From: a virus
Strand: one strand, 5' to 3'
Virus record (IMG/VR): IMGVR_UViG_3300031159_000070
Location: 64,001-128,000 of that record
DNA: 64,000 bases
Under the pieces are notes generated by a model. It did not search any database and was not told the DNA's origin. It saw only the letters and a program-made list of their open reading frames with translations. A program made the translations under genes and the position numbers. Positions within the stretch are counted from its first letter, which is position 1; every line of letters begins with the position of its first letter. Shown one piece after another: positions 15,421 through 53,294 of the stretch.

Positions 15421-15448
15421 CTCCGCATGAAAAAATGGACTGACCGCA

Positions 15449-25400: not shown

Positions 25401-28400
25401 CTGCGCACGCCGCTCGACAACGAGGCCGAGCAGGCCATGCGGCGCACGCCATACGCTCCGTTCCGTCAGGTGGGTGAAGGCGTTGACGAGTGGCCGGTCT
25501 ACGATCCGTCGTCCGGCGAGATGCTGGTCGGTCCGCCGAAAGCCCATCCCATCATTGTCCTTGGCCGCGAGCAGCGTGCGATCGATCCGACGGATGCGGC
25601 ATCGGCTCCGCTGTTCCGTCGGGCGCTGGGCACGCTCATCAATCGGTCCGGCCGTGCTCAGCCGTTGACGAATGAGATCGCCAAAGAGGCTGAGGAGATC
25701 GGCAATCGCTACGTCAAAGGCTTTTCTCTCGAGCGGTTCCTGCGCCGGCTCGATGCCGGCAATCTCTCGAAAGCGGATCGCTTTCTGCCTGAGCCGCGCG
25801 CCGACATCGTGCGCAAGGTGCGCGAGCTGATCGATGTCGATATGGAGCAATTCGGCGATGCCGCCGGGCCGCTCGGGCATGCGCTGCTGAAGAAGGATCC
25901 GGTGGCGTTCGCGCGCATGGTCTCGCAGCTGTCGGACGCGCGCATGAGCCAATACTTCCTCGACCGCGGCTATGATGCGACGCGCGCCGCAGTGGAGGGC
26001 GCGGAGCTCCAGCGTGGTGCCCGGCTGTTCGCTGAGCTGGTCGATGGCATCACCAAGGGCAAGGCGCGCGTCAAGTTCTACGACCTCGCCAACGTGGATG
26101 GAGCGCTCAGAACCTATCGTGGCAGAGAGCATCTGGCGCAGGCCTTTGAGGCTTGGTTCGCGCTGGAGTACAGCCCGAACCCGACCTGGCGCCGGATGAT
26201 CGATCACATGATGCCTGGGCTGGACGAGGTGATGCGTCGGGTGCTGAGGGCGCGCTCGCGCGAGGCGTTCCCGGACGTGTGGGCGCCGACGCTGCGCATG
26301 GCCCACAACCGGCGCATCGTGGCCGATCCGCGCGCCATCGATGTCGATCGTCTGACGTTTGAGCTGGAGGCGCCACCGGCCAGCATTGCCGCCGGCATAC
26401 GCGAGAGCGTGCGGCAGCGGTTCTATGACTACCTCGAGGGCGAAGGGTCGCTCGCCAAGCGCGTTCACAACCAGATCGCCAAGGACCTCGGTATCTCGCG
26501 GCAGGATGTCGAGGTGCTGATCCGTGAAGCGCAGCGCGCGGGCTGGGTCAGGGCTCAGGGTCGCGGCTTCCGCGTGGTGCCGGCCGACAGGCGTCCGCCG
26601 CGCCCCGTCGGCACGCCGGCCATCTCCCCGACGCAGCATCAGCGCGACCTATTCTACGACTATCTGGAAGGCAAGACCGGCGGCTCGGAGAAATCTCTCG
26701 GCTCGCTGAGCCAGGCTGCCTTGCGCGATCTGCAGCGCGAGATCGGCGCGACGCCGATACAGATGAGCCGCCTGACGTTTGAAGCGCAAGAGGTGGGCTG
26801 GCTCAAGCGCGATGCGCGCGGACAGCTCAGGCGCACATGGACCCGCGGTCTGGAGCGGACTGACAAGGCACCGCCGCCGCGGCCAAAGTCGCAAGATATC
26901 GAGCGGATCGAGGGGACACTTGGCACGCCTGCTGGTAGGATCGAACCGGCAGAGGCGCCGAAGCGACGGCGAGGTGACGATGGCGACTTTGGCGGAACTG
27001 GAGGCGCGGGAGAAGGACCTGCTGGGCCGGGCCCCCAAGGCGGAGGACTATCCGAACCCGGAGGCCTTCGCGGAAGCGAGAGCGAGCTGGATCCGAACAT
27101 ACGGGCCAGCGCTGAGGATCCTCCGCTCAGAAATCTCCCGACGCAGATCACAGTCCCGGGCCGCGGCAAGGTCACGTTCGGGCCGCTGAAGCAGGCGCGG
27201 CAAGCGGCAATCGACTACATGCGCGACGCGGGTCTGCCTTACAACCCGCCGCGCACCTACGTGAAAGTCGATCCGGCGCGTGCCAGGCGCATCGCCGAAG
27301 CCTATGAGGCGATGCCGCACAATCCCAACGATCCCGAGGTGAAGGCCGCCTTCAAGGCGATGATCGAGGAGACTCTGGCTCAGTATCAGTACATCAAGAA
27401 GACCGGTCTCAAGATCGAGATGATGGACCTCGATCAGCCCGACCCCTATGCCGCTTCGCCGCGGCTCGCTCATCTCGACGTCATCGAGAACAACCACCTC
27501 TGGGTCTATCCGACGGACGCCGGCTTCGGATCGAATGCCGATTTCGATGTCAGCGACAATCCGCTGATGCAGTTCACCGATGAGTACCTGAACGGCAAGC
27601 GCCTCAGGGCAAATGACGTGTTCCGCATCGTCCATGACTACTTCGGCCACTTCAAAGAGGGCGTCGGTTTCCGTGCAGATGGCGAGGAGAACGCGTGGCG
27701 CTCGCACAGCGCCATGTACTCGCCGCTCGCCCGGCGAGCGATGACGACGGAGACGCGCGGACAGAACTCCTGGGTCAACTTTGGCCCGCACGGTGAGAAG
27801 AACCGCACGGCCAAGGCCGAAGATACGATCTTCGCCGACCAGAAAACGGGCCTGCTCCCGCAATGGGTTGTTGACGAAGGCGCAGGCGATCCGCCGGACG
27901 TGACGCCCCCTGCGCAACCAGAGCCGACCCGAAACATTCTCGATCGGGCGCATCTCACAGAGCTTGTCCAGCGCATCGTCTCTGAAATGCGTGGTGTTCC
28001 GCTCGATCGCATCGCCCATCAGCGCCTCCCGGTGCGCACCGAGTCCGAACAGACGATGGTGAATGAGGTCTGGCGCCACGCCACGCTGTCGCCAGAGATC
28101 GAAAAGGTGATTTCAGGTGCCGAGTCCATCACGCTCTCTGAGCCGACCGACGGGCCCACCTACTACGATCCTGTGACGGGAACGCTTGAGATCGGCCGGC
28201 GCAATCCTTCGGCGCCTCAGGACCGGGTCTGGATCCGCCACGAGTTCGGCCACCACCTCGACCTGCCGATGACGCCGGACGGAACGGTGGTGCAGTATTC
28301 GGCCGCGCCAGAGTTCGGCCTGGCCAAAGCGATGCAGGCCGATCTCGAGCAGCTGGCGCGCAGCTACGCGCCTGATGCGAAGGTCGTCCTGCGTGCCGAG

Positions 28401-28844
28401 TCCGCGCTGCAGCGGTTCAAGGATCGTTACGGGATCGATCTTGCGAAAAACGTCTCTGATATTGGGCTTGCGCATCGCATGGCTGAATACGCGTTGACCG
28501 GCAATGCGGCGTTCCTGAAGCTGGTTGACCAGGCCGTGCGGACTGGTGCGATCAGAGACGCCAAGATCGCCAGCGAGTTCATGGTCTATTCAGACTTGAC
28601 GGCTGCGGTGACAAAGCTCAAGCTTGGCACCGGCCATCCTGAGACGTACTTCGCCGGTGGATTTGATATCGGCGAGGGTTACACGAGTCGTCATGCCAAT
28701 GAGGCATTCGCCAACTGGTTCGCGCTGCATTCGAGCGATGTGACCGGTTGGCGCCTGCTTATGCAGCAGTATTTCCCGCGCGTCGTGGAGTCCAATGCGT
28801 CGATCCTGGATCGCATGGGAGCCGATGCGCATGGCGAACAGTGA
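22452..28844 (+). CDS. MuF (SPP1 gp7-like) minor head protein fused to ART-like, winged-HTH and zincin domains
   Basis: MuF motif AVLDNRTTPRC...PPLHVNCRS; ART-like VYR/FLSGT/HELVL; FRIVHDYFGH...TTETRGQNS; HEFGH...NEAFA. Confidence 0.9.
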   Translation: MPDTRLDELVKHRIGLERYQTSILRQVIPVLHDAEQDLVQIIREKLFDPRLTLSEARRLETTLRMVRKAQLEAYEVIFKRLWSEYRGLSAHEADWAKSYYRDLFAVQHSIEVPSASMLVAAALERPMSGRHLKAWADKMTAEHIAEVERQIRLGVIEGESIDQMVRRLRGTEAFRFRDGVTAKQRRSLEALVRTSVNHITNAAHLSFLQQNPEVFKKVQFVAVLDNRTTPRCRSLSGQIFDVDKAPVPPLHVNCRSTLVGLPTAPDGTPAAEPLADVSYEEWLREQPVAVQEDVLGVAKAKLFRIGDLKLDRFVDHTGKELTLDQLKRQERAAWERTFLTAEDRRAMSVIRRVNSLVNRAPEDLRPLAEIGQRAWQFLRFHSSQWLEAVATQWSRPVDPELVSLVFLLDFFDGPVTVQLYRSSAFWRSIIRRGLRPRPALVYPHTRMPRGLIVHPTVRRVRGELFPPPGRSRSPVPVGPRPRPGEGIIIDIDPTRPPQPPTPRPIVPPRRPDSIIIPPGRRGPATRRPPADMPVPPPRAPVPTERLPHVMRVIPDKGAEAIIPKIADDVQSLPPPSPVRVLPSPQPSQLPARVPALTNNLPAPKNPLRITVPELEAELDRLLPKEGARFNVEDALRNLWNAFKQRGHDGFEILDSQGVPRVRIGINEDQLTTFLDRWRAARAAFDQAQRPLLPAPPARPALPGAARVADRIEVRPGAQAPNVIHLPYRPPPHPLPPHGVPGDLAAVAKNQLGNGIRAIEDLPKPRARRRVPLAPRIAARRAREAEARRLVAEQQIRDLLAELNEINAGLEGLRPISRQLQARADVLQRLTLQNRLETDVTVYRPVRWANFAERMGPSPARLDKVIFESPSFLSGTGNEITAFEAGARFGKGPLVVMRINLKKGDVALAGNREAHELVLPAGSRLKVTAVRRMRASEIPADLRNLYPQNQEFWLADIEMVRPGDPVDRAITAARTTQQRYVDRMLRTPLDNEAEQAMRRTPYAPFRQVGEGVDEWPVYDPSSGEMLVGPPKAHPIIVLGREQRAIDPTDAASAPLFRRALGTLINRSGRAQPLTNEIAKEAEEIGNRYVKGFSLERFLRRLDAGNLSKADRFLPEPRADIVRKVRELIDVDMEQFGDAAGPLGHALLKKDPVAFARMVSQLSDARMSQYFLDRGYDATRAAVEGAELQRGARLFAELVDGITKGKARVKFYDLANVDGALRTYRGREHLAQAFEAWFALEYSPNPTWRRMIDHMMPGLDEVMRRVLRARSREAFPDVWAPTLRMAHNRRIVADPRAIDVDRLTFELEAPPASIAAGIRESVRQRFYDYLEGEGSLAKRVHNQIAKDLGISRQDVEVLIREAQRAGWVRAQGRGFRVVPADRRPPRPVGTPAISPTQHQRDLFYDYLEGKTGGSEKSLGSLSQAALRDLQREIGATPIQMSRLTFEAQEVGWLKRDARGQLRRTWTRGLERTDKAPPPRPKSQDIERIEGTLGTPAGRIEPAEAPKRRRGDDGDFGGTGGAGEGPAGPGPQGGGLSEPGGLRGSESELDPNIRASAEDPPLRNLPTQITVPGRGKVTFGPLKQARQAAIDYMRDAGLPYNPPRTYVKVDPARARRIAEAYEAMPHNPNDPEVKAAFKAMIEETLAQYQYIKKTGLKIEMMDLDQPDPYAASPRLAHLDVIENNHLWVYPTDAGFGSNADFDVSDNPLMQFTDEYLNGKRLRANDVFRIVHDYFGHFKEGVGFRADGEENAWRSHSAMYSPLARRAMTTETRGQNSWVNFGPHGEKNRTAKAEDTIFADQKTGLLPQWVVDEGAGDPPDVTPPAQPEPTRNILDRAHLTELVQRIVSEMRGVPLDRIAHQRLPVRTESEQTMVNEVWRHATLSPEIEKVISGAESITLSEPTDGPTYYDPVTGTLEIGRRNPSAPQDRVWIRHEFGHHLDLPMTPDGTVVQYSAAPEFGLAKAMQADLEQLARSYAPDAKVVLRAESALQRFKDRYGIDLAKNVSDIGLAHRMAEYALTGNAAFLKLVDQAVRTGAIRDAKIASEFMVYSDLTAAVTKLKLGTGHPETYFAGGFDIGEGYTSRHANEAFANWFALHSSDVTGWRLLMQQYFPRVVESNASILDRMGADAHGEQ
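26980..27189 (+). CDS. nested +1-frame small protein inside the MuF gene
   Basis: GAGGTG RBS; MATLAELEAREKDLLGRAPKAEDYPNPEAFAEARASWIRTYGPALRILRSEI...; overlies a Gly/Pro linker of MuF. Confidence 0.55.
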   Translation: MATLAELEAREKDLLGRAPKAEDYPNPEAFAEARASWIRTYGPALRILRSEISRRRSQSRAAARSRSGR

Positions 28845-31107: not shown

Positions 31108-34100
31108 GTGGCCAATAAGCCAACCGATATCCACTATGAAGGCCAGATTCTTTTCGGATCTGTCGGGCAGTTCGGTCTTGGTGACCCAGGGTTTCCCCGG
31201 GGCAGCGCTGTTGGAACCGCCGCCGGCTCATCATCTGCATCTGGTGGCGGTGGCCGGCTTACCGCACCACTTCTCCCTGTCCATCTCGTCGGGCATGTAC
31301 TTTTCGGCGCGATAGGACAGTTCGGGCTTGGGGATGCGGGCGATCTCAATCCGATCGTTGAAGCCGCTGGCTCCGCATCGGCCAGCGCTGAAGCCAACGC
31401 GTCAGCGACCACCGTTCTCTCATCGACCGCCTCGGCTGTCGGTTCGGCAACCAGCACAGGTGCTGGAACCGGCATATTCGATGCGGCGGCCAGCGCCGAT
31501 GGTGACGCGCAAGCATCGGCGACTGGCCTTGGTTTGGCGGTCGTCGCGGCAGTAGGCAGCGCATCAGGAACTTCGCAAGCAACGAGTGCGAGTGTTGCGA
31601 CTGCTGCAGCCTCCGGCAGCTCATCCTCGCTCGCAGAGCTTGTCGCAGTTGGTGCTGCGACCTCGGCCGCGGCAGCTTCGAGCTCTGCCGCAGCTACAGC
31701 TGCCGCCATTGGCGCTGCTGCGGTTCAAGCTATCGGTGTAAGCACTGGATCTTCTGCAGCCGAAGGAACGTCAGCGCCCGTTGCTGCTGGAGCCGGCGAG
31801 AGCGCTGCATCTGCTGCTGTTGCCGGCTCGCTTCACGCACGAGCCGATGCGACTGGCTCGGTTTCAGGAACGTCAACCGCATCAGCTGCGGCGTTGCTGA
31901 CAGCTGCGGCGACTGGCGCGAGTTCCGCAGCAGGCAGCGCAACAGCTGCCGGGCGAGAAGTTGCCCTCCAGACGCGCGTTGACCGCGAGGGCCACGTTCT
32001 CTTCGGTGCGCTGGGCCAGTTCGGGCTTGGTGATGCCGGCGAGATCCCCGGTATCCTGCTTGCTTCGGCCGGAATCAGCGCTGGCGTAGCGGCGGCAGAT
32101 GCAATCGGGCGGTCAATCGCAACCGCTGCCGGATCGGCTGTCGCCACCTCCACCGCCGCCGCGTTTGGTATCGGCGAGATCGGCACGTCCGGAACCGTTG
32201 CCGGACAGAGCACCGCTGCGGGCGTTGGCAGCGCCATTGCTGCTGCTGCTGGATCCGTTGTCGACGCGAGCGGTTCCGCTGACGGCCATGCACTTTCACA
32301 AGCTTCCGGCGTCGGTGTTGCTATCGGCAACGCGTCGGCCAGCGCCGTCGGCAGATCAACATCTGATGCCGCTGGCACTTCTGCAGCCGTTGCTTCCGCG
32401 GTCGCGGCCGGTGCAAGCATCATTGACTCGTCAGGCGTTGCTGCGGCTGCCGCGACAGCTGCCGCGCAAGGTGCCGCCACTGCAGCCCGCGCTGGGATTG
32501 TTTCGTGTTCTGCTGCTGTCAGCGGGAACACTGCTGCCACCGCATCGGCCTCAGGCAACGCATCGGCCGAGACAACCGCTCTTGCTGATGGCGCCTCTAC
32601 GAGCGAGGCAGCTGGCAGCACATCCGCCACGGCCGATGCGGACGGGCGCGGTCGAGCTGTCGCCCCACTGAGGCCCGTTGACCGCGAAGGTCACGTTCTC
32701 TTCGGTGCGCTGGGTCAGTTCGGACTTGGCGATGCTGGCGATAATCTTACTGGCACCGTTCAGGCCGTGGGCTCGAGTAGTGGTGCGGCGCAGACATCTG
32801 CGATTGGCGCGTCCACTGCAGCAGCGGATGGCGTTGCAGCTGCTGTCGCCAGTACGAGCGGCGTTGCGTCAACGATCGCTGCCGCGTCCGGTCAGTGCCA
32901 GGCGCAGAGCGGCGTCGCCGGTGCTGGCTCGACGGTCATCAACGCAAGCGGCTCTGCTGAAGCTGCGTCCGGCGCTGAGGGGCGCGGCGCATCCATAAGC
33001 GCAGCCGCGGCCACGGCGGCAGGCGCAAGCACGACCAGCGCGAAAGGCGCATCGCGGTTTTCGGCTTATGGCCTTATCATCGCCATGGCCGCCGCGCTCG
33101 CGCTGTGGATTGCTACCCACAGCAGTATCGGCCTGTCCGTTTCTGGTGCTTCTGCTGCAGCCCGTGGGGCTTCCATCGCGGCAAGCGCAGGGCAGGCGAG
33201 TGGCACCAGTGCTGTCGATGGTGGCGGTGCATCAACGCATGCCGCATCTGGGTCAAGCGCCGGCGCAGCCACAGCATCTGCCGAGTCGGCGCTGACCGGC
33301 GAAGCGAGCGGTCTGGCGCAAGGTCTTGCAGCCGTCGAAGGTGTCGGTCAGTCGACCGCGGCAAGCGCGGGTGCTGCTGGCGGTGATGCCGCGAGCCAGG
33401 CTGTTCTGGCAGCGACTGCCAGCGCAGTCGGATCGGCGCAAGGAACCGCGAACGCTGCAGCCGACGGCGCCAGTTCCGCTGCCGGCGTCGGTACAGCGAT
33501 TGGCCAGAGCGAGGTTGCCGGCGAGGCCAGATCGTCTGCTGCATCGGCCGGATCCTCCCCTGGCCTTGCAACCGTCGAAGGCACTGGCGCGGCCACAGCC
33601 GCTGCTGTCGGTGTGTCGGATGCTATTGCATCCGTGTCGGCCGGCTTCTCGGCCACCGACGCTGGCGTCGGCGCGGTTGCCGGTGTTGCAACGGCGGCGG
33701 CGAAGGCCGAAGCGACCGCTGCCGGGACAGGCAAGGCCGAAGGATCGGTTGCTGTCCTGGGCGCTGGAACCGGCATCGCCCCGGCCGCTGGCAGTGGCGA
33801 TGGTGCTGCAGAGGCCGCAGCTGCTGGCGAAGCCGCGGCGATCACTGTCGGCGAGACGGCCGGCTCGAGCACTGTTGCTGGAACCGGCGCTGCCACCGCG
33901 GAAGGCTCCGGTTCCGCGATCGGCACCAGCGTTGTCAGCGGCGGCGCAAGTGCGACAGCTGCCGGCGTCGGACAGGTTGCTTGCGTCGCAACGTCGGAAA
34001 GCACCGGAGCTCCGATAGCGGCTGCTGCTGGTGGCGTGTCAGGCGATGCCATCGTTGATGGTCAGAGTCTGCCGCTTGTCACCCTCTCCGGCGACGGTCT

Positions 34101-35409
34101 TGCCGAGGGCTCTGCGACCGCTAACGGCGTCGTCGCCGCAACGCATGCATCCGCCGCCGAAGCCGTAGCCGCATCGCTTGTTTCAGCTGTTGGCGCTGCG
34201 ACGGCTCAAGCCCGTGGGTCCGTCGAGGCGAGCTCGAGCGTCGCCGGCGTTGTCTTCTCGACAGCAGCCGCGACCGGTGCGGCGGCGGGCAGCTCGACTG
34301 CCGATGCGGAAGCTGCTTGGACGGCAGCTGCTGCCGGCGACGCGGATGCCAGCGCTTCTATCAGTGGTGATGCGGAATCAACCGCCGCAGCTGCCGGTCG
34401 GTCCGAAAACCTGGCCGCGGTTGATGGGCGAGCTGCGGCCCGTGCTGATGCTGCAGGTGTCGGTGCCGGCGTCGCTACTGCCGATGGCGCACTTCGCGCG
34501 GATGCGTTTGCTGCAGGCTTTGGCCAAGGCGAAGCGGCAGCGGCGGCGCAAGGAGCGGCGGCGGCGGCTGCTGCCGGGGAGGTCTCCGCCAGCGCGAGCG
34601 TGGCAGGCGCAGGCGCTTCGACGGCAGCTGCTGTTGCGGAGAGTGCCGGCGCTGTTGCAGTCGAGGGCAGTGCTGCAGCCACTGCCGCTACCGTTGCAAC
34701 GGCCGAAGCTGTTGCCGATGCTCATGCGACCGGTGCTGCGACGGCGAGCGCAGCTGGTGTTGCTGCTGGTGAGGCGAGCGCTGTCGCCGATGCCCGAAAG
34801 CTCCTGTCGGGCGCCGGCGCGAGCGAGGGCCAGGCGAGCGCAAGTGCCCACGGCGTTGCGCTACGCATGGGAGCGGGCGCTGCGGTCGGCGAGGCCTCCG
34901 CGGCTGCGACGGGCCGGGCGACGCATTCGGCTGTTGCGGCTGCGTCCGGTTCCGCAGAAGTCGCGGCACAGCACGATTCGATCCTGTGGTGGGAAGGCCT
35001 GGCCTCGGGCCACGCCACCGCCGCCGGCGTCGGTAAGGCGCTGCATCAGCTCAACATCCAGTCCGATCACTGGCCTGCAGCGGCGCTCGCCGTGTCCGCG
35101 GAGCCCGCCGCTGAGATCGACGTGGTTGCGCAGGCGCCGGTCGCAATTGCTGTAAGTGTGCGTGGCGAGGCACCACCAAAGACAGCGAAGTCTCGCAAGC
35201 TGCATGTTGCCACGCGCGTGATGTCGCTGAGCGAAGTCGAAGTCTCACACGATAGTGCGATGGAAATGTCGGTCTCGAGCGGCCCGGCGGTGATCATCTC
35301 GACGCTTGTTCTCGAGCTGGTCGAGACGGGGTCGAGCAACGGACCCGAGATCGACACCGATGCATCTCATGGGCCGAAGGCAAGAATTGCAACCCGAGCG
35401 AGGTCGTGA
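31108..35409 (+). CDS. Ala/Gly/Ser-rich 20-aa-repeat fibre-like protein
   Basis: 1433 aa; long 20-residue periodicity; four (H/Q)(V/I)LFGxxGQFGLGD motifs. Confidence 0.8.
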   Translation: MANKPTDIHYEGQILFGSVGQFGLGDPGFPRGSAVGTAAGSSSASGGGGRLTAPLLPVHLVGHVLFGAIGQFGLGDAGDLNPIVEAAGSASASAEANASATTVLSSTASAVGSATSTGAGTGIFDAAASADGDAQASATGLGLAVVAAVGSASGTSQATSASVATAAASGSSSSLAELVAVGAATSAAAASSSAAATAAAIGAAAVQAIGVSTGSSAAEGTSAPVAAGAGESAASAAVAGSLHARADATGSVSGTSTASAAALLTAAATGASSAAGSATAAGREVALQTRVDREGHVLFGALGQFGLGDAGEIPGILLASAGISAGVAAADAIGRSIATAAGSAVATSTAAAFGIGEIGTSGTVAGQSTAAGVGSAIAAAAGSVVDASGSADGHALSQASGVGVAIGNASASAVGRSTSDAAGTSAAVASAVAAGASIIDSSGVAAAAATAAAQGAATAARAGIVSCSAAVSGNTAATASASGNASAETTALADGASTSEAAGSTSATADADGRGRAVAPLRPVDREGHVLFGALGQFGLGDAGDNLTGTVQAVGSSSGAAQTSAIGASTAAADGVAAAVASTSGVASTIAAASGQCQAQSGVAGAGSTVINASGSAEAASGAEGRGASISAAAATAAGASTTSAKGASRFSAYGLIIAMAAALALWIATHSSIGLSVSGASAAARGASIAASAGQASGTSAVDGGGASTHAASGSSAGAATASAESALTGEASGLAQGLAAVEGVGQSTAASAGAAGGDAASQAVLAATASAVGSAQGTANAAADGASSAAGVGTAIGQSEVAGEARSSAASAGSSPGLATVEGTGAATAAAVGVSDAIASVSAGFSATDAGVGAVAGVATAAAKAEATAAGTGKAEGSVAVLGAGTGIAPAAGSGDGAAEAAAAGEAAAITVGETAGSSTVAGTGAATAEGSGSAIGTSVVSGGASATAAGVGQVACVATSESTGAPIAAAAGGVSGDAIVDGQSLPLVTLSGDGLAEGSATANGVVAATHASAAEAVAASLVSAVGAATAQARGSVEASSSVAGVVFSTAAATGAAAGSSTADAEAAWTAAAAGDADASASISGDAESTAAAAGRSENLAAVDGRAAARADAAGVGAGVATADGALRADAFAAGFGQGEAAAAAQGAAAAAAAGEVSASASVAGAGASTAAAVAESAGAVAVEGSAAATAATVATAEAVADAHATGAATASAAGVAAGEASAVADARKLLSGAGASEGQASASAHGVALRMGAGAAVGEASAAATGRATHSAVAAASGSAEVAAQHDSILWWEGLASGHATAAGVGKALHQLNIQSDHWPAAALAVSAEPAAEIDVVAQAPVAIAVSVRGEAPPKTAKSRKLHVATRVMSLSEVEVSHDSAMEMSVSSGPAVIISTLVLELVETGSSNGPEIDTDASHGPKARIATRARS

Positions 35410-35705
35410 TGATACCCCTTGGCAATACTGTCGTCGTCTCTGCTGTCATCAGGGACAAGGCCACGAAGGCGCTGATCGATCCTGAAACGCTGCGCTGTCG
35501 CGTCAAGCGGCGCGCGAAGGACGCGGAAGAGACCGTTTATGTGTACGGCACGCATCCCGAGTTGACCCGGCGCAGTGTGGGCACCTATGAGCTGAGAATC
35601 ACACCAGACGCGCCTGGCGCCTGGATCTATCGTTGGGAAGGCGACGGACCGTTTGAGAGCGCGCGGGAAGGCACGTTCAACATCGAGCCGAGCAATTTCG
35701 GATGA
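35406..35705 (+). CDS. small Ig-like beta-sandwich virion protein
   Basis: DP...GTYEL...PGAWIYRWEG pattern. Confidence 0.6.
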   Translation: MMIPLGNTVVVSAVIRDKATKALIDPETLRCRVKRRAKDAEETVYVYGTHPELTRRSVGTYELRITPDAPGAWIYRWEGDGPFESAREGTFNIEPSNFG

Positions 35706-35989
35706 CGGACTATTCTCCTGAAAGCTTCGCCGACCATCCAGAATCGATCCAGGAGCTTCGCTCCGACAGGACGCAGAATGCCGCTGACTGGTCACCGCGC
35801 GATGCGCTGATTGCGATGTTGAGAAAGATCGATCGCGGCGAGATCGACTCCGATGCGCTGGTTGTGGTCTGGCGCCAGCGCAAGGGCGAAGGCGTAGCTG
35901 AGTCGGGTTTTGCTGTGGCAAGTCCGGATGTGCATGTAACGCTCGGCTTGCTGGTTCACGCCCAGCACAAAGTGATGGGATTGCCCTGA
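35702..35989 (+). CDS. hypothetical protein
   Basis: 95 aa, ATGA-coupled. Confidence 0.7.
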   Translation: MTDYSPESFADHPESIQELRSDRTQNAADWSPRDALIAMLRKIDRGEIDSDALVVVWRQRKGEGVAESGFAVASPDVHVTLGLLVHAQHKVMGLP

Positions 35990-36204
35990 TGGCTGACGAA
36001 GACGAGGATGAGATCGAGATCCCAGAGCGTACCTTCGAGCAGGCGCTGGAAGGGCTCGTTTCGGTCGGCGGCGCGGGACCTGGCGGAGCGCTGCGGTTCT
36101 ATGATGCCGAGGGCCATATCCTGACGCCTGAGCAGATCGCGCGGCGCCCGCCGCCGAGGAAGGCGCCCAACATCAAGCTGAAGTTTCGCGCTCGCCGGGA
36201 TTAG
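35989..36204 (+). CDS. hypothetical protein
   Basis: 71 aa, TGATG-coupled. Confidence 0.6.
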   Translation: MADEDEDEIEIPERTFEQALEGLVSVGGAGPGGALRFYDAEGHILTPEQIARRPPPRKAPNIKLKFRARRD

Positions 36205-36403
36205 TCTCGTCGCACCACGCCATGAGCGCGCCGATCTTCTGAGTTGCTTCGGCTTCGATCTCGGCGCAGGTCGGTCTTCCGAGTGCTCTGTCGATGCGGT
36301 CCAGTATGTGCTGTCGCGCGAACGGAGTTGCCGGGCCGCCGTAGATCATGTGGTAGGCGTCATTCAAAAGGCGCTCCAGCTCTTTCACGCGATCGGCAGT
36401 CAT
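36173..36403 (-). CDS. hypothetical protein
   Basis: 76 aa, ATGA-coupled to the upstream gene. Confidence 0.55.
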   Translation of the reverse strand: MTADRVKELERLLNDAYHMIYGGPATPFARQHILDRIDRALGRPTCAEIEAEATQKIGALMAWCDETNPGERETSA

Positions 36404-36702
36404 GGGCGGGGTTCCAGCTCAGCCTCGAGCTCGACCACTACCGCGTCGACCTCATTCAGGAATTGCAGCGCCGCGCGGGCCAGCTTCTTCTGTCTCTCAA
36501 AGGACTTCGAGTAGATCATGTCGCGATAGAGCGTCGGGTCGAGGATGTGTCCGACGTTGTGCATGTGGTGCTCCGCTTCCAAAAGCGTTTCGAGGTGCGG
36601 CTTCACCGCCTTCAGGTTCTGATACAGGAAGCCGATCGTGTCCATCGCCAGCTTGTGCTCGGGCGATACGTTGTTCCTGTACTTCTCGGCTGGATCAACC
36701 AT
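36400..36702 (-). CDS. hypothetical protein
   Basis: Helical ORF from MVDPAEKY. Confidence 0.6.
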   Translation of the reverse strand: MVDPAEKYRNNVSPEHKLAMDTIGFLYQNLKAVKPHLETLLEAEHHMHNVGHILDPTLYRDMIYSKSFERQKKLARAALQFLNEVDAVVVELEAELEPRP

Positions 36703-36848
36703 GAATGCCCATCCCGGGTGCCAAAGCATAGGGTTCTAGTCTAGGAGCACTAGACCGCTCAGTCGAGCAACTATTCGGGCTTTCCACTGCCGACTTCTCG
36801 TCATAGTATTGATCTACGGAGACCGGTTATCGAATGTAGGTGTTCGCC

Positions 36849-37235
36849 ATGATTGATCGTCGCTCGTTTCTCACTGCAGGCGCTGCGCTTCTGCCGGCCT
36901 CCTGGCTCACTCCTGCACGTGGCGCTGAGACGCTCGCCGGCGAGCCGATCATCGGCACATATGCCATCACCCTGCCGCGCGACGGCGTTTACCGGGTGAT
37001 GGCGGACGGCATCTGGGCCAAAGATCCGACAGAGCTGTCGATGTTTCTGACGCGCGGCTCTGACATCAGCATGATCGCGGCTGCGGTTCGCGCGCCGCGG
37101 CCGGGCGAGGGCGGCGAGCTGGTGCTGGCGACGCGCATCGATGCCAAGGCACACGATCGCATCTCGATCGAGGTCTCGAGCGATACCAACTCGATGCCGC
37201 GGCTTGCCGCGATGCCTCTCATCTTCTACGCGTAA
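36849..37235 (+). CDS. Tat-signal exported protein
   Basis: MIDRRSFLTAGAALLPASWLTPARGAE; AGGTG RBS. Confidence 0.7.
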   Translation: MIDRRSFLTAGAALLPASWLTPARGAETLAGEPIIGTYAITLPRDGVYRVMADGIWAKDPTELSMFLTRGSDISMIAAAVRAPRPGEGGELVLATRIDAKAHDRISIEVSSDTNSMPRLAAMPLIFYA

Positions 37236-37251
37236 ATCTGTCTAGCGTCAC

Positions 37252-37280
37252 TTGACCTGAATCTGCGTCGGGCATAGCGT
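37252..37280 (+). promoter_or_regulatory. sigma70-type promoter
   Basis: TTGACC-17bp-TAGCGT with GTCTAG 6 bp upstream of the -35. Confidence 0.55.
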
Positions 37281-37301
37281 CACCTCTACAGGAGGTGGCG
37301 C

Positions 37302-37601
37302 ATGAATGCTTTGGAGCAACATCTAAAGCCCGATCAGCTGTTGCGGCTGCGATGTCTCGAGCTGGCGCTCAACAACCGGCACGCGTTCTCCGATGGAGAG
37401 CGACGATCGTTCACGGAATGGGCTGATCTCTTCCAGCAGTTCGTCATGACCGGCGTGCCCTTCACGGATAATCCGTGGATCACGGGGAACGTCACCCGCC
37501 AGCATGAAATCATGCAGAAGAACCCAGAGCTTGCCAGGAAGCTCATTGCCGAAGTGAGCGAGGCTCGCGGCGAAAACTCAGCACCAGCAACCCAGGAGTA
37601 G
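37302..37601 (+). CDS. small protein with a scaffold-like C-terminal motif
   Basis: AGGAGG RBS; NPWITGNVTRQHEIMQKNPELARKL. Confidence 0.75.
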   Translation: MNALEQHLKPDQLLRLRCLELALNNRHAFSDGERRSFTEWADLFQQFVMTGVPFTDNPWITGNVTRQHEIMQKNPELARKLIAEVSEARGENSAPATQE

Positions 37602-37605
37602 TGAC

Positions 37606-37830
37606 ATGCCTGTGCAGATTCGCATGGATCATACCGGTGACACCCGCTTTACGTTCGATGCTGCCGATGAGGCGGCTGTCGCCGAAGCCGAGGCCCGTTT
37701 CAAGGAGCTGACCGGAAAGGGCTTCCGCGCCGCAGCCTTGGGTGAGAGCGGTGAGCCTGGACGTCTGCTCAAGGAGTTCGATCCGACCGTCGAGCGCACG
37801 CTCTTCATTCCGGCTCTGCAGGGCGGCTAG
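37606..37830 (+). CDS. small protein ending in Gly-Gly
   Basis: 74 aa, MDHTGD...FDP...PALQGG; AGGAG RBS. Confidence 0.8.
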   Translation: MPVQIRMDHTGDTRFTFDAADEAAVAEAEARFKELTGKGFRAAALGESGEPGRLLKEFDPTVERTLFIPALQGG

Positions 37831-37912
37831 TCCATGTGGCCACCAGAGGGGATCAATGATCTCCAGTATCTGGAAAGGGAGATCGAGCGGGCCGCGACGC
37901 GATCTCCAGTAC

Positions 37913-38479
37913 ATGGGCATGCAGGTGGTCGTGGATGCTGCGGATCAGGCCGACAACACTGGCTTGATGGGCTTACGCATCGATCGGGCTCTTCTCGATC
38001 CTGTAGACAGCGATGTCGGGATCGGCCTCTGTGCTCCCAATTTCGAGGCGGAGCTGGCTGAACACGCGCGGCGTATCTCGCAGGCCGACGTCGTTATCGA
38101 CCGCTACAATGATTTCGGGGGCGACAAGAAGGCCAGCGAGAAGTCCATCAAGCTGCTCAAGGAAAACCTGACGCCCAAGCAGCTCGAAACCTATGAGAAA
38201 CATCGCTGGTTCGAGGTGAAGGGCGGCGACACCGGCCGGACCTACCGCATCTATCACCGCCGGCAAATGAACGTCTCGGTGCGCAACTGGCGCGGCAAGC
38301 ACAAACACGGGCTCTGCTTCCTGCCCACCGGCGGCCTCGCCATTGGAGATATCCTGCTCGGACAGAAGATCGCGCTCGAGCTCTACGAGCACGATGCCCT
38401 CAAGGTCGCCAACCGGTTCGATCATGACCCTGGCATTTGGGTCACGCCCTTCGAAACTTCTTTCGAAGAAGTGGTCTAG
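37913..38479 (+). CDS. putative partner of the GG protein (start uncertain)
   Basis: LLKENLTPKQ...FEVKGGDTGRTYRI...N...GLCFLP...GDILLGQKIALE...AN. Confidence 0.7.
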   Translation: MGMQVVVDAADQADNTGLMGLRIDRALLDPVDSDVGIGLCAPNFEAELAEHARRISQADVVIDRYNDFGGDKKASEKSIKLLKENLTPKQLETYEKHRWFEVKGGDTGRTYRIYHRRQMNVSVRNWRGKHKHGLCFLPTGGLAIGDILLGQKIALELYEHDALKVANRFDHDPGIWVTPFETSFEEVV

Positions 38480-38485
38480 TGACGC

Positions 38486-38514
38486 TTGACGTCTCCGCTG
38501 GCTGACCTTACACG
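38486..38514 (+). promoter_or_regulatory. sigma70-type promoter for the tRNA
   Basis: TTGACG-17bp-TACACG with GTCTAG 6 bp upstream of the -35. Confidence 0.5.
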
Positions 38515-38536
38515 TGATTCTGCCACGAGCGAGCGG

Positions 38537-38611
38537 TGTGGGGTGGAGCAGTGGTAGCTCGCTGGTCTCATACGCCAGAGGTCGTCGGTTCGAATCCGAC
38601 CCCCGCAACCA
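38537..38611 (+). tRNA. tRNA-Met(CAT), initiator-like scaffold, encoded CCA
   Basis: TGTGGGG/CCCCGCA acceptor stem, GAGC/GCTC D stem, CTGGT-CTCATAC-GCCAG anticodon arm, GTCGG-TTCGAAT-CCGAC T arm, ACCA end. Confidence 0.93.
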
Positions 38612-38704
38612 ATCGATCCCATCCGAGATAAAAGCCGCCGGGGATGGGAAAAAGGAAGTGGTGACAGCGCGCATCTCGCGCCAACACACGGAGGCTTGCC
38701 ATTC

Positions 38705-39139
38705 ATGTTCAAGAGCGCAGCATACCCCGATACTCCGCTCGATCACTCCAAATCGCGCGATTTCATGCGCACCAACCTCGGCCTTTCGCCAGTACAGGAT
38801 TCGCTCGAACTGAATGGCGAGGCGGCAACCGACGTCACGCTCGAAGCCTATCAGACGACGCTCGTCTCGGCAGACGCTGGCGCCCAATACAATCTGCCGG
38901 ATGGCGAATACGTTGGCCAGCGCAAGCTGCTGAAGGCCGATGTCTCCGACGCAGGAACATGCGTCGCTTCCGACGCGGCCAAGGCGAAATTGATCGTCAA
39001 TGGACTCCATGGCCAATCGGCAGCGAACGTCACTGCGCTCACCTTCGATGCCGATGGCGAACTCGCTCTCCTCGAGTGGACAGGCGCGAAATGGAATGTC
39101 GTCTACGCAACCGCTACGGTCACGGATGATTCGGTATAG
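38705..39139 (+). CDS. beta-rich virion decoration/fibre-like protein
   Basis: YNLPDGEYVGQRKLL...LTFDADGE..LLEWTGAKWNVV; GGAGG RBS. Confidence 0.6.
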   Translation: MFKSAAYPDTPLDHSKSRDFMRTNLGLSPVQDSLELNGEAATDVTLEAYQTTLVSADAGAQYNLPDGEYVGQRKLLKADVSDAGTCVASDAAKAKLIVNGLHGQSAANVTALTFDADGELALLEWTGAKWNVVYATATVTDDSV

Positions 39140-39159
39140 CGCGCGGCAAGACCAATTTG

Positions 39160-39190
39160 AACGGGCACCTTCGGGTGCCCGTTGTATTTT
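39160..39190 (+). terminator. UUCG-capped terminator hairpin
   Basis: AACGGGCACC-TTCG-GGTGCCCGTT followed by a T-rich tract. Confidence 0.75.
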
Positions 39191-39255
39191 GATTGCAAAT
39201 CAGCAACACCTTTGCACCTTTCAGAAAAAAATCTTGACAGGCGCATTTTTGCTGG

Positions 39256-39284
39256 TTGACGCAAGAGCCAATTTGGTCTAGCAC
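39256..39284 (+). promoter_or_regulatory. promoter of the sRNA
   Basis: TTGACG-17bp-TAGCAC. Confidence 0.65.
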
Positions 39285-39290
39285 CACGAT

Positions 39291-39386
39291 ACCATCGGCT
39301 CATTGCGAGCGATGAGCTATGGGCCCTCCTTGGGCGTTGTTTCCTCCCTAGACTTGGGCCGTTCGGAAATCCGGACGGCCTTTTTC
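39291..39386 (+). ncRNA. mmgR: alpha-r8/MmgR (Rfam suhB)-like small RNA
   Basis: CCCTCCTTGGGCGTTGTTTCCTCCCTAGACTTGGGCCG core, terminator GGCCGTTCGG-AAAT-CCGGACGGCC-TTTTT, 5' hairpin and its own promoter. Confidence 0.85.
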
Positions 39387-39513
39387 GTTGGGGGATCGTT
39401 CAGTACGGCGAAGGCGGGGTGCCTGCGCTTTGCGATTGTCCTGAGATGTGCTGCTCAATACGCCCACTCGATTTTGGAGTGCGGCAGGTCACGGCTTTCC
39501 GAAAAAGCAGCGC

Positions 39514-39750
39514 TCAGGGTCGTCGATCGATGCGGGACCATTTGGGCTCGTCGAGACCTCGCTCGACGCGCCGCATCTTCGTCTTTACCGCCGCAAACGA
39601 GCGGTGGTCTGAGGGTGAGCTCGGCGTAAAAACGATCGTCCTGTGCCGAGGATGCGTCAGCCTGTAATGCTGATTCTTGGTCTGCTCGATATCCCAGCCA
39701 CGCTTCTTCGCGTAGCTCAATAGCTCGCGGCGGTAGTGTGCGGGGTTCAT
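39514..39750 (-). CDS. HicA-like small protein
   Basis: ELLSYAKKRGWDIEQTKNQHYRLTHP...TPSSPSDHR; GAGGAG RBS. Confidence 0.65.
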   Translation of the reverse strand: MNPAHYRRELLSYAKKRGWDIEQTKNQHYRLTHPRHRTIVFTPSSPSDHRSFAAVKTKMRRVERGLDEPKWSRIDRRP

Positions 39751-39760
39751 GGGCGTCTCC

Positions 39761-40114
39761 TCAGGCGGCACGCTTGATGGAGACTTGCTGAAGCTGCCAC
39801 TGCAGAATGATCTTTTCGCGCAGCCACGCTCGAAAAAGAGCTTCATGCAGCGGTTTCGAGTAGGACCAGTGTCCATTCACTCCCATCTGTCGCGCGCGGC
39901 TGCAGGCGACCTCGAGCTTTAGGATAAGTGCTCGCGTATTGTGGATCGCGGCCTTGGCATCGACCAGGAGATGCGCGGCTGGATCAACGAGCATATTCGG
40001 ATCGTCAATGATCGGCGCCCATTTCGGAATGTCGCGACGATCATAACTGCCGATCTTCGCACGTAAATCAGCACAGCTTTGTTGCCAGGATTTGACGTCC
40101 TGCAGCTCGATCAT
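39761..40114 (-). CDS. hypothetical protein
   Basis: 117 aa, AAGGAG RBS. Confidence 0.65.
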   Translation of the reverse strand: MIELQDVKSWQQSCADLRAKIGSYDRRDIPKWAPIIDDPNMLVDPAAHLLVDAKAAIHNTRALILKLEVACSRARQMGVNGHWSYSKPLHEALFRAWLREKIILQWQLQQVSIKRAA

Positions 40115-40289
40115 GGTGGTCTCCTTGGGGCTCGCGTCCGGGTCGGGCAGGCGGTAGTCTCACGCCACTTGCCATCATGCGTCTAGTATAACTGGTCTTG
40201 ATGCCGTCCAGCAAGGATCAGTCCAGCTCTCCACAGCTGGGTCAGTCGGGCGCCGTTCGCCTTCGTCCGTAATCGATCAGAGTGCCGGG

Positions 40290-40385
40290 CCGGCGCGATG
40301 CCGGGTCGGATCACCTCAACTGCCAGCTTGTCTGCCGGCGCGATGCCGGTCGAGAGCCGAGGCCAACCGCGGGCGCGATGCCTGC
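40290..40385 (+). repeat. three GCGAT-loop hairpins in the scaffold leader
   Basis: CCGGC-GCGAT-GCCGG, GCCGGC-GCGAT-GCCGGT, GCGGGC-GCGAT-GCCTGC, the last abutting the GAGG RBS. Confidence 0.8.
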
Positions 40386-40398
40386 ATTGAGGATTGTG

Positions 40399-41271
40399 AT
40401 GTTCGACTTTCCACTGACCGTCAAATCAATCGACGAAGTTCCCGAAGAGTACCGCATCCTTTACGAGCTGAATGACGACGGCGAGGGCGCGACGCTCATC
40501 GCTAGTCTGAAGCAGCGCATAGAGGGTGTCGGTCCTGCCGGACAACGCGCTCTGCAGGAAGAGCGCAAGGCCCGGGCTGCTGCCGAAAAAGCCGCGAAGG
40601 CTTGGAAGGAGGCGGCCGGTGTCGAAACTCCGGAAGAGCTCACTGCCAAATTCGAGGAAATCGAATCCGAGTGGCAGCAGAAGCTCGAGGAAGCGCAGGC
40701 CACTAAAGGCGGCGACAAGGACGAAGATCTGAACAAGCGATTGCAGCAGGTCAGATCCGAAGTCGAGCGCGAGTGGAGCAAAAAGCTCGATCGGGAAATT
40801 GCCGAGCGCAAGAAGGCCGAGGAAGAGCGCGACCAGATGTTCAAAGACATGCAAAGGAACATGCTGGAGCGCGAAGCCATGGAGGCCATCGCAGCGCACA
40901 AGGGCAAGCCTACGCTGCTCAGGCGCGAGGTTATGGCCCAGCTCAAACTCGCCAAGACGGACGCCGGCTGGAAGGTCCGCGTCGTCGATGAAGATGGCGA
41001 TGAGCGCTACGACGGCGATGGAAAGCCGATGACGGTCCACAACCTCGTGGCACTGATGCGCCAGTCCGATGACTACGCGGCTGCTTTTGAGGGCGATGGC
41101 GCCACTGGAAGCGGTTCACGGTCGCCGGCCGGCGGCACGAAGATCTCCTCAAAAACCAACCCCTGGTCCAAAGCGACGTTCAACGCAACGGAGCAGGCCA
41201 AAATCCTGAAGTCGAATCCTCAGCTCGCCAAGCAACTGCAGGCGCAGGCTGAGGCCGAGGCTCGCAGGTAA
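40399..41271 (+). CDS. capsid scaffolding protein
   Basis: DEVPEEYRILY, RALQEERKAR, long coiled coil, GSGS linker, C-terminal NPWSKATFNATEQ; directly before the capsid gene. Confidence 0.88.
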   Translation: MFDFPLTVKSIDEVPEEYRILYELNDDGEGATLIASLKQRIEGVGPAGQRALQEERKARAAAEKAAKAWKEAAGVETPEELTAKFEEIESEWQQKLEEAQATKGGDKDEDLNKRLQQVRSEVEREWSKKLDREIAERKKAEEERDQMFKDMQRNMLEREAMEAIAAHKGKPTLLRREVMAQLKLAKTDAGWKVRVVDEDGDERYDGDGKPMTVHNLVALMRQSDDYAAAFEGDGATGSGSRSPAGGTKISSKTNPWSKATFNATEQAKILKSNPQLAKQLQAQAEAEARR

Positions 41272-41390: not shown

Positions 41391-42356
41391 ATGACTGAGA
41401 CTCGCCTTGCAGACGTTATCGTTCCCGAGCATTTCAATCAGTATTCGATGCAACTTACCACCGAGTTGTCTCGATTCCGGCGCTCTGGGCTTGTGGTCGA
41501 CTTCTCCGCGGAGCTTGGCTCCCAGATGGGCGGCACGACCGTCAACATGCCGTACTTCAACGATCTGGAGGGTGACGACGACGTCGTCGACGACACCCAG
41601 GATCTCGAGCTCAACAAGATCACGACCGGGCAGGATGTTGCGGTCAAGCTGTACCGCGCCAAGGCTTTCGGTGCAACCGACCTGTCCGGCGATCTCGCCG
41701 GCGCCGATCCTGTCAAGGCGATCGCCACGCGCTTTGCCGAGTGGTGGATCCGCAAGGAGCAGGAGGTTCTGATCTCGGTCTGTCAGGGCGCGCTCGGTTC
41801 GGCGCTGATGACCGATAACGTCCTCGATATTTCAAACCTCGAGGGCGCTGCCGCAAACTTCGATCCCTACAGCTTCATCGATGCGCAGGCGCGTCTCGGT
41901 GACCACCAGGATCTTCTGTCTGGCATTGCCTGCCACAGCAAGACCTACACGGCCATGAAGAAGGCTGATCTCATCGAGGAGATCCGGCCGTCGGATGGCG
42001 GTGATCCCATTCCGACCTACATGGGCAAGGTCCTGATCGTCGATGACAAGATGCCTTATTCTGAGGGCGTCTATACGACCTTCATCTTCGGCCAGGGCGC
42101 CATCGGCTACGTCTCCGCAAGCCCGAAGGTTCCCGTCGAGGTCGGTCGCGAGCCTCTGAAGGGCGGTGGCCAGGACTATATCGTCCAGCGCCGCTTCTTC
42201 GTCATGCACCCGCGCGGCGTGCGCTGGTCTCCGCAGCCTGGCGTCCCGGCGAGAGCGACGCCCACCAACGCCGAGCTGGCCAATACGGCCAACTGGCAGC
42301 GCTGCTATGACCCGAAGAACATCCGGATCGTGATGTTCAAGCACAAGGTCGGCTAA
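41391..42356 (+). CDS. major capsid protein
   Basis: TRLADVIVPEHF, GGTTVNMPYFNDL, PTYMGKVLIVDD, MHPRG, PTNAELA..ANW. Confidence 0.93.
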   Translation: MTETRLADVIVPEHFNQYSMQLTTELSRFRRSGLVVDFSAELGSQMGGTTVNMPYFNDLEGDDDVVDDTQDLELNKITTGQDVAVKLYRAKAFGATDLSGDLAGADPVKAIATRFAEWWIRKEQEVLISVCQGALGSALMTDNVLDISNLEGAAANFDPYSFIDAQARLGDHQDLLSGIACHSKTYTAMKKADLIEEIRPSDGGDPIPTYMGKVLIVDDKMPYSEGVYTTFIFGQGAIGYVSASPKVPVEVGREPLKGGGQDYIVQRRFFVMHPRGVRWSPQPGVPARATPTNAELANTANWQRCYDPKNIRIVMFKHKVG

Positions 42357-46095: not shown

Positions 46096-47007
46096 ATGAC
46101 CACCCAAGTCACGCATCCGCCGCGCTTCGACGCGATCGATCTGTCGCAACTGCCTGCTCCAGAGGTTGTCGAAACCCTCGACTACGAAGCGATTCTCGCT
46201 GAGCTCAAGGCGGACTTCAAAGAGCGCTGGCCCGACTACGACGTCGAGATGCTGGAAAGCGATCCAGCGATCAAGCTGCTTGAGGTTGCGGCATTCCGCG
46301 AGCTGGTCCTGCGCGCCCGCGTCAATGATGCGGCCCGGGCGGTCATGCTTGCATTTGCGAAGTCGTCCGATCTCGATCATCTGGGCGCGCTTTTCAAGAC
46401 GTCGCGCAAGCTGATCCAGGAAGCCGACCCGACGATCAATCAGCCGGAAATCTACGAGAGCGACCGGGAGTATCGCGCGCGGGTGCAGCTGGCGCCGGAA
46501 GCCCTGTCGACCGCCGGCCCGATCGGGGCTTATATCTACCATGCATTATCAGCGCACCCGGATGTTCGTGACGTCGGCGTCTATTCTCCAGAGCCTGGCA
46601 GCGTGCATGTTCTGCCGCTCGTGCGCGCCGACGACGGCATTCCTTCCGAGGAAGTGCTTGATGCCGTGCGCGACCGGCTGATGCTGGAGACTGTCAAGCC
46701 GCTCACCGACTCGCTTGCGGTGCGTGCGCCTGAGCGTATCGATTTCACGGTCGAGGCAACGCTCGTCATTCCGCATGGACCGGACTCGTTGACCGTCAAG
46801 CAGGCGGCAGAGGCCGCTCTTGCGACCTACCTCAGCTCAAGGCACAGAGTTGGCCGCACGGTCTATCGCTCAGGAATAACTGCAGCGCTTTCCGTGGCCT
46901 CCGTCGAGACCATCGTGCTCGCCAGTCCGGCCCAAGATGTGATCGTGGGCCCCGATCAAGTCGCTTGGGCGACGGATATCTCGATCTCCATTCAAGTCGC
47001 CGACTGA
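46096..47007 (+). CDS. baseplate J protein
   Basis: IDLSQLPAPEVVETLDYEAIL, ESDP, STAGP.GAY, PLTD. Confidence 0.95.
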   Translation: MTTQVTHPPRFDAIDLSQLPAPEVVETLDYEAILAELKADFKERWPDYDVEMLESDPAIKLLEVAAFRELVLRARVNDAARAVMLAFAKSSDLDHLGALFKTSRKLIQEADPTINQPEIYESDREYRARVQLAPEALSTAGPIGAYIYHALSAHPDVRDVGVYSPEPGSVHVLPLVRADDGIPSEEVLDAVRDRLMLETVKPLTDSLAVRAPERIDFTVEATLVIPHGPDSLTVKQAAEAALATYLSSRHRVGRTVYRSGITAALSVASVETIVLASPAQDVIVGPDQVAWATDISISIQVAD

Positions 47008-53160: not shown

Positions 53161-53294
53161 TCGATTCACCGAGTGAATATCTGAGTTTGGCCGATTCCTG
53201 ATCCGGCATCGTGATTTCGCGCTGCGACCTACGGTTCGCGGCGTTTTTTGCGTTCTCGCGCCCTCTCACCCACGTCATTGAAGGAGGCCATCTG

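Follow-up and report, generated by a model that had tools for sequence, protein, structure and literature searches.

A 64,000-nucleotide stretch of viral DNA (positions 64,001 to 128,000 of the IMG/VR record IMGVR_UViG_3300031159_000070), referred to below as the window, carries a small RNA (sRNA) gene of the alphaproteobacterial alpha-r8 family within the structural module of a 137-kb myovirus-like record, where it lies between a tRNA-Met gene and the scaffold and capsid genes. We consider it probable, at roughly 60%, that this is an intact MmgR/SisA/SuhB-type gene that was captured from an alphaproteobacterial host and is kept as a functional, host-mimicking sRNA unit in a variable cargo region of the head module. 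Observations counted against this reading include a weak −10 element, an empty promoter scan, the presence of the gene in one of three close relatives and a 3-base duplication. Host-derived metabolic genes are known in phages, and reports of phages with a copy of a core regulatory RNA of the host are rare.

Identity and predicted structure of the RNA

The original prediction had assigned the sequence to the alpha-r8 family (Rfam suhB) on the basis of its core, and a covariance-model search bore this out. Using cmscan with Rfam 15, a suhB/mmgR match (RF00519) was obtained at 39316–39395 on the plus strand of the window, with 48.0 bits against a gathering score of 41, an E-value of 8.7e-7 for the 64-kb window and coverage of all model positions (1–77 of 77). 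Only one other Rfam match in the whole window exceeded its gathering score, a tRNA at 38537–38608. The copy at 39316–39395 is the single RF00519 match in the entire 137,047-base record, and a sub-threshold Rfam scan of 35400–40400 revealed no further match of note. Members of the family are described as having an internal single-stranded decamer, a weak hairpin 5′ of the decamer and a Rho-independent terminator (PMC12559287), and the phage copy has all three, with the decamer being exact and predicted to be unpaired.

Folding of the RNA at 39290–39388 (99 nt) gave −46.8 kcal/mol with a z-score of −4.55, and none of 200 shuffled sequences folded equally well. In 5′ to 3′ order, the fold comprises a 5′ hairpin, a small CCUCC hairpin, an unpaired stretch with the decamer and a terminator, all on the plus strand. 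The 5′ hairpin, the core with two anti-Shine-Dalgarno motifs and the intrinsic terminator named in the original prediction were thereby recovered: a strong hairpin at 39292–39322 abuts the small hairpin, the quoted core is found exactly at 39324–39355 with CCTCC motifs at 39325–39329 and 39343–39347, and the terminator (39356–39385) consists of an 11-bp stem at 39356–39381 with a 4-base loop, followed by T5 at 39381–39385. The small hairpin (39323–39335), which is seen in both the cmscan alignment and the fold, has the form GCCC, 5-base loop, GGGC and bears the first CCUCC. The family decamer UUUCCUCCCU (39340–39349), reported as the family core (PMC12559287) and the putative pairing seed, is predicted to be unpaired in both the MFE and the centroid fold.

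The linker that joins the small hairpin to the decamer contains a 3-base tandem duplication (39336–39338, plus strand), which appears as an insert in the cmscan alignment and is absent from the original description. It is because of this duplication that the RF00519 score is 48.0 bits, compared with 62.8 bits in other phage copies such as that of the related IMG/VR contig L120. The duplication was found in none of the 119 core-pattern matches listed from the IMG/VR loci (L120 repeats the contig of L067) nor in the high-depth bacterial contigs of three phyllosphere metagenomes, and it is known from the source assembly alone. Chromosomal copies in the bacterial genomes G002, G001 and G083 fold alike, with a 5′ hairpin, a small hairpin, a free decamer and a terminator; hence the 5′ hairpin is inherited and not a phage invention. 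Letter for letter, the host copies have the same small hairpin and decamer.

Genomic setting in the phage record

The claim that the RNA is phage-borne is borne out by PHROG matches, which place it between portal/head-morphogenesis genes and scaffold/capsid genes. On its 5′ side, the window encodes the terminase large subunit (11617–13170), the portal (13846–15420), a 2130-aa head-morphogenesis protein (22452–28844), of which the first ~350 residues match head-morphogenesis families, and a giant ORF of 1433 aa (31108–35409) with no PHROG or Pfam match. On its 3′ side follow the genes for the head scaffolding protein (40282–41271, plus strand; phrog_206, E = 4.3e-25) and the major head protein (41391–42356, plus strand; phrog_247, E = 8.9e-103; Pfam Gp13-like), and further on those for baseplate (46096–47007), tail sheath (53211–55031) and tape measure (58066–61386). 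As structural genes flank the sRNA on both sides, it is not located at a prophage end. An attachment site was also considered and rejected, the gene being whole and internal to the structural genes in the record. IMG/VR labels the record as a provirus that is 95% complete; neither a tyrosine integrase nor a resolvase was detected in it, and the FGase gene (PF05013) gave no match anywhere in the 137 kb.

The cargo region that holds the sRNA also contains, about 700 bases 5′ of it, a tRNA gene with anticodon CAT, listed as tRNA-Met and of elongator Met, initiator or Ile2 type (38537–38611, plus strand; RF00005 65.4 bits, ARAGORN), followed by an upstream ORF of 147 aa without a family match (38696–39139, plus strand), which is kept beside the sRNA in L120. 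This ORF is closed by a terminator-like hairpin (39160–39183, plus strand), so that the sRNA would constitute a separate transcription unit, and with terminators on both sides (hairpins 39160–39183 and 39356–39381) its boundaries are those of a moron. The next gene downstream (39514–39876, minus strand; phrog_2089, a family of unknown function) is convergent, so that the sRNA cannot serve as a read-through leader at this site.

Bacterial counterparts and host

Among 401 evenly sampled genomes of the class of G001, a set that includes the unpublished genome G241, 102 matched the sRNA by blastn, which points to the Alphaproteobacteria as this class. The best bacterial match (G002:C34) showed 88% identity over sRNA positions 8–74, and the terminator of the window copy is nearly identical to that of the G002 chromosomal copy and closer to it than to any of the 118 other viral copies listed. 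In all five bacterial genomes checked, the matching chromosomal copy was convergent with and adjacent to an FGase gene, which is the canonical host arrangement as described in PMC12559287. Named plasmid and chromid matches came from Methylobacterium, Methylocystis, Azospirillum, Bradyrhizobium and Ancylobacter at 79–92% identity, values that do not settle the genus.

Three phyllosphere metagenomes contained contigs of 370–1700x depth that match 39323–39385 with 0–3 differences and a 3-base gap and continue beyond this match into unrelated sequence, indicating that a nearly identical sRNA is present in abundant bacteria of these samples. The phage is carried by the phyllosphere metagenome X2, in which three contig pieces of 783–1583 bases showed no differences at ~7x depth; the phage-depth contigs in this run stop at 39182 and resume at 39376, and none of those listed spans the sRNA.

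The proposal that the RNA points to the host group held up, and the host is, judging from the bacterial sRNA copies, the FGase-linked loci and the named plasmid and chromid matches, an alphaproteobacterium. So close a resemblance to a host copy would be in keeping with a capture that is recent and possibly neutral. As the host presumably has an alpha-r8 gene of its own with this seed, the phage copy may be redundant.

Promoter region and PhaR/AniA operator

The promoter ascribed to the gene in the original prediction stays a prediction. The predicted element (39256–39284, plus strand) consists of a −35 box TTGACG at 39256–39261, a 17-base spacer and a −10 box at 39279–39284, and has no PhaR-type dyad. 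In the alignment with L120, a 9-base block with the TTGACG is identical, and smaller patches 5′ of the sRNA are conserved as well. The −10 box is weak, however, and a simple sigma-70 scan returned no promoter site at its threshold near the sRNA, for which reasons we refer to the promoter as predicted.

Bacterial copies share a promoter layout of −35, TGC-N3-GCA dyad, −10 and often a second dyad. The PhaR consensus is given in PMC12542648, where a PhaR site in the mmgR promoter of Sinorhizobium meliloti is listed and confirmed by EMSA. Neither YGCRNYGCR nor TGC-N3-GCA occurs within 120 bases 5′ of the phage sRNA. When the PhaR core YGCRNYGCR was counted 10–130 bases 5′ of the GGGCG of the small hairpin, it was present in 15 of 20 FGase-linked and 11 of 13 other bacterial copies (26/33 overall, with the caveat that this set was chosen by similarity to the window sRNA). 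The viral set comprised those 105 of the 118 listed IMG/VR loci that are distinct and have enough upstream sequence; the core was found in 7 of these 105 copies and, for a control region further upstream, in 4 of the 96 listed copies, so that it is missing from 98 of the 105 listed viral copies other than that of the window. L120 and three deposited phages together gave one match in four for the core and none in four for the strict dyad, and the window copy itself had none (0/1).

On this comparison, the phage copy retains the region predicted to be transcribed and has lost the operator tied to carbon status, a feature on which the original prediction was silent. Its designation as a homolog of the host MmgR is accordingly valid for family membership (RF00519) and not for regulatory equivalence to mmgR: because the PhaR/AniA operator is absent, the phage copy is a family member and not a regulatory equivalent, and neither by locus nor by control is it an mmgR orthologue. 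As a separate observation, two or three tandem alpha-r8 copies adjoin the FGase gene at several loci of bacterial genomes (G001:C21 2091–2410, i.e. L127/L128, as well as L138 and L148); in the tandem copies of G001, a PhaR-type dyad is found at the FGase-proximal copy and none at the distal one.

Alpha-r8 genes in other viruses

The core pattern was detected in at least 118 IMG/VR contigs. An FGase gene was nearby in none of the 118 listed viral loci, compared with 22 of 32 bacterial loci, and the listed viral loci therefore do not represent flanking host DNA from the canonical locus. Neighbours within 3 kb of these loci were clustered and the first ten clusters annotated, nine of them with a PHROG family. 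The clusters correspond to replication initiation (22 loci), antiterminator (19), HNH (19 plus 6), phrog_12540 (18), large terminase (14), primase (7) and small terminase (5), and at least 47 of the 118 listed loci have one of these annotated neighbours. In 19 listed loci the sRNA lies just 3′ of an antiterminator-like gene, in 33 packaging-side genes (HNH, phrog_12540 or terminase) are found within 3 kb of it, and both features coincide in 11.

A layout that recurs among the loci L002–L119 (e.g. L022, L079, L110 and L116) runs from replication initiation via an antiterminator-like gene (phrog_6386) and the sRNA to HNH, phrog_12540 and the large terminase, which puts the sRNA at the position of a late-promoter leader, unlike the layout of the window. 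A late-leader gate fits these other viral loci and was rejected for the window, where the downstream gene is convergent.

Terminators were examined in the window copy and 108 distinct listed viral copies, ten loci having been dropped as duplicates or because they lay too close to the end of a locus. A strict hairpin-plus-T-run terminator was present in 84 of the 109 copies, formed by 79 different hairpins, compared with 7 of 109 in shuffled controls.

Among deposited phages, five records matched the L120 sRNA by blastn, four of which were fetched. Bradyrhizobium phage ppBeUSDA76-1 and the 'Microcystis phage' Mwe-JY08 gave RF00519 matches of 62.8 bits, under which neither record has an annotated RNA, while BDU-MI-1 and ppBdUSDA122-1 have degenerate copies below the cut-off, as judged by eye. 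The Mwe-JY08 record (L126, PP395640.1), which has the full alpha-r8 sRNA at 2996–3079, is filed under a cyanobacterial host; since the alpha-r8 family is described as restricted to Alphaproteobacteria (PMC12559287), the true host of this phage may be an associated alphaproteobacterium. In deposited phages, as well as in at least 118 IMG/VR contigs, the family model detects sRNA genes that have no annotated RNA under the match, and it assigns the hosts of these viruses to the Alphaproteobacteria.

In a search of the literature on mmgR, alpha-r8 and alphaproteobacterial phage and prophage sRNAs (PMC7143759, PMC12559287, PMC8401924, PMC12542648, PMC10127595 and bioRxiv 10.64898/2025.12.09.693200), no description of a phage-borne alpha-r8 was found; the family phylogeny of Lagares 2016 and the J Bacteriol 2017 paper on MmgR, which are outside that scope, may mention mobile copies. 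We tentatively propose, as a possibility short of even odds, that alpha-r8 genes are a widespread, undescribed auxiliary regulatory gene of alphaproteobacterial phages, acquired in many independent captures in which the seed and the terminator were kept and the PhaR/AniA operator was dropped, such that expression would be uncoupled from the carbon/PHB status of the host and the host regulon would be forced. If so, the window copy would represent one independent capture from a G002-like host lineage, and the transporter, receptor and carbon-storage regulon of the host would be forced during lysogeny or infection, with superinfection exclusion via receptor repression or the redirection of carbon to phage production as possible gains.

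Conservation among close relatives

The contig L120, whose major head protein is 84% identical to that of the window, shows the same order of upstream ORF, sRNA, scaffold and capsid. Its sRNA reaches 62.8 bits with RF00519, and DNA identity between the window and L120 is 85% in the sRNA and 69% and 74% in the flanks. The contig L121 (head protein 80%) has no alpha-r8 match in the 6 kb that precede its capsid gene, even with the cut-off relaxed to E ≤ 1, and on the phage-like contig of the bacterial MAG G001 (head protein 76–77%) no RF00519 match was found within 6 kb; the two RF00519 matches of this MAG both lie on a contig other than the phage-like one. The sRNA is thus present at the same site in one of three close relatives (L120, as opposed to L121 and the G001 contig), which is the presence/absence pattern expected of a moron.

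Searches with the capsid protein returned a single locus among genome contigs (L122) and a single distant locus among metagenome contigs (L172, 41%). The upstream ORF has seven homologues (P0001–P0007), and a profile search with it yielded only the contig of L120 again and a 34% relative (L174); neither L172 nor L174 has an RF00519 match. By capsid, the nearest cultured relative is Bradyrhizobium phage BDU-MI-1 with 57.7% amino acid identity. Two side observations concern these contigs. At 78–187 on its minus strand, L121 has a sub-threshold YrlA (Y RNA-like) match with a tRNA-like part (35.4 bits; gathering score 69). L122 is titled as a Bacteroidota MAG, yet its genome G001 has the alphaproteobacterial alpha-r8/FGase arrangement and a phage relative, which suggests a mixed bin or a mislabel.

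The main rival explanation is that the gene is a neutral passenger, i.e. recently acquired host DNA that has not decayed and is of no use to the phage. We regard this as unlikely, even though the patchy occurrence in close relatives, a terminator almost identical to that of a bacterial chromosomal copy, the duplication that lowers the model score and the weak −10 would all suit it. In L120, however, the gene is found at the same site with an intact seed and a higher identity than its flanks; the host promoter has been replaced and not carried along, with part of the new, predicted promoter being conserved; and the terminator has been kept through many different stems across the 108 other distinct viral copies listed. 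Retention as a functional sRNA unit remains the reading that we prefer.

Proposed function and comparison with known systems

We infer that the captured gene is transcribed and that its RNA depends on Hfq, has targets in the host and benefits the phage. The RNA would measure ~95–100 nt, starting near 39290 and ending at the T-run near 39385. The decamer, and perhaps also the CCUCC of the small hairpin, would pair with Shine-Dalgarno regions of the host, aided by Hfq, and the pairing would block translation of host mRNAs. Since the pairing motifs are identical to those of the host copies, the phage RNA should act on the same regulon as the host alpha-r8, which in the species studied is reported to include transporters, TonB-dependent receptors, carbon-metabolism genes and PHB-related genes. 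Control alone would differ, with a phage promoter in place of the host-type promoter and its PhaR/AniA operator, so that timing and dose would be changed; with that host-type promoter replaced, the phage would impose the regulon regardless of the carbon status of the host and could run a host gene-silencing programme on its own schedule. A seed that is the same as that of the host, combined with a promoter that alone is different, would offer a clean, testable case of the takeover of a post-transcriptional regulon by timing. In rhizobia, Caulobacter and sphingomonads, nutrient uptake and carbon storage are under the control of this family, so that phage copies could change how carbon flows and which surface receptors are displayed in plant-associated and soil bacteria.

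With respect to the two functions offered in the original prediction, silencing of host mRNAs by the phage sRNA may fairly be inferred from the sequence, while a role centred on PHB or phasins appears doubtful to us. The diversion of carbon from storage granules is an analogy drawn solely from the phenotypes of S. meliloti and Sphingopyxis. Mutants in MmgR are reported to over-accumulate PHB and phasins, with no direct MmgR target known (PMC12559287 among the sources), and SuhB of Sphingopyxis granuli TFA has been described to block thnR translation, its mutant over-accumulating PHB.

MmgR of S. meliloti and the phage copy have the small CCUCC hairpin, the unpaired decamer, the intrinsic terminator and the RF00519 match in common. 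MmgR is chromosomal, however, whereas the phage copy is located on a phage without FGase nearby, and the mmgR promoter has a PhaR/AniA site (PMC12542648) that the phage promoter lacks. Moreover, MmgR has 77 nt, while the phage RNA, predicted at ~95–100 nt, is longer because of its 5′ hairpin and bears the 3-base duplication. In Caulobacter, SisA is reported to repress its targets via the decamer and Hfq by pairing to 5′ UTRs, as supported by compensatory mutations, and the alpha-r8 regulon there consists mainly of TonB-dependent receptors and transporters, which are repressed (PMC12559287). The set SisA–D of Caulobacter crescentus places one seed at several loci under unrelated promoters, and a phage copy with its own predicted promoter follows the same logic, although SisA–D are chromosomal paralogues and their regulon and the sponge CrfA are, as described, known only in Caulobacter. 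The Sphingopyxis SuhB belongs to the same family as the phage copy and differs in being chromosomal and, according to its description, under a LysR-type regulator. Further counterparts are the RF00519 copies inside the genomes of ppBeUSDA76-1 and Mwe-JY08; in ppBeUSDA76-1 and many IMG/VR contigs, though, the sRNA lies between an antiterminator-like gene and HNH/terminase, whereas the window copy stands alone in the head module.

Among enterobacteria, DicF is a prophage-encoded regulatory RNA. Like phage morons and the RNAs AsxR, AgvB and DicF, the window unit would be a small autonomous element acting on host RNA networks, and it is absent from the close relative L121. To our knowledge, none of AsxR, AgvB and DicF duplicates a core sRNA of the host, whereas the seed of the phage alpha-r8 is letter-for-letter that of the host family.

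AsxR and AgvB, which are described as phage-encoded anti-sRNAs of enterobacteria (PMC12559287), together with the Caulobacter sponge CrfA, which is reported to bind exactly the decamer (PMC12559287), lend some interest to a decoy function, in which the RNA would soak up a CrfA-like anti-alpha-r8 sponge or Hfq and thereby raise or perturb host alpha-r8 activity with no mRNA pairing. We consider this quite improbable, as no such sponge is known outside Caulobacter and mRNA pairing is predicted equally well by the identical seed.

The scaffold and capsid genes 900 bases downstream of the sRNA, and the antiterminator/packaging layout of other listed viral loci, which fits a late-leader role in that class, might suggest that the RNA regulates the phage's own genes or acts as a plain terminator or insulator in the head module. 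This is highly improbable for the window, where the convergent phrog_2089 gene makes read-through into the late genes impossible. In addition, duplex energies against 190 predicted phage start regions revealed no outlier (best −32.5, mean −21.6, s.d. 3.8 kcal/mol), and no complement to the decamer of at least 9 bases was found in the record apart from the sRNA gene itself.

An artefact, be it a bacterial sRNA joined to phage sequence during assembly or a patch of homology or attachment site serving integration, is barely credible in spite of the long exact words common to the sRNA and very abundant bacterial contigs of the same kind of sample and the lack of a tyrosine integrase or resolvase in the record, because the arrangement recurs at 69–85% identity in L120, an independent contig from a different data set, and the gene is whole, with a predicted non-host promoter and structural genes on both sides.

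Further genes of the record

Outside the window, the record (G000:C1) encodes several further proteins. An AAA ATPase gene (3727–5682) is interrupted by a LAGLIDADG-like domain. There are also genes for an OMP beta-barrel protein (7192–7959) and a CI-like HTH repressor (14878–15543), the latter with a weak, sub-threshold S24 match. A PAS-HWE histidine kinase gene (135950–137047) runs off the right end of the record and possibly belongs to the host flank.
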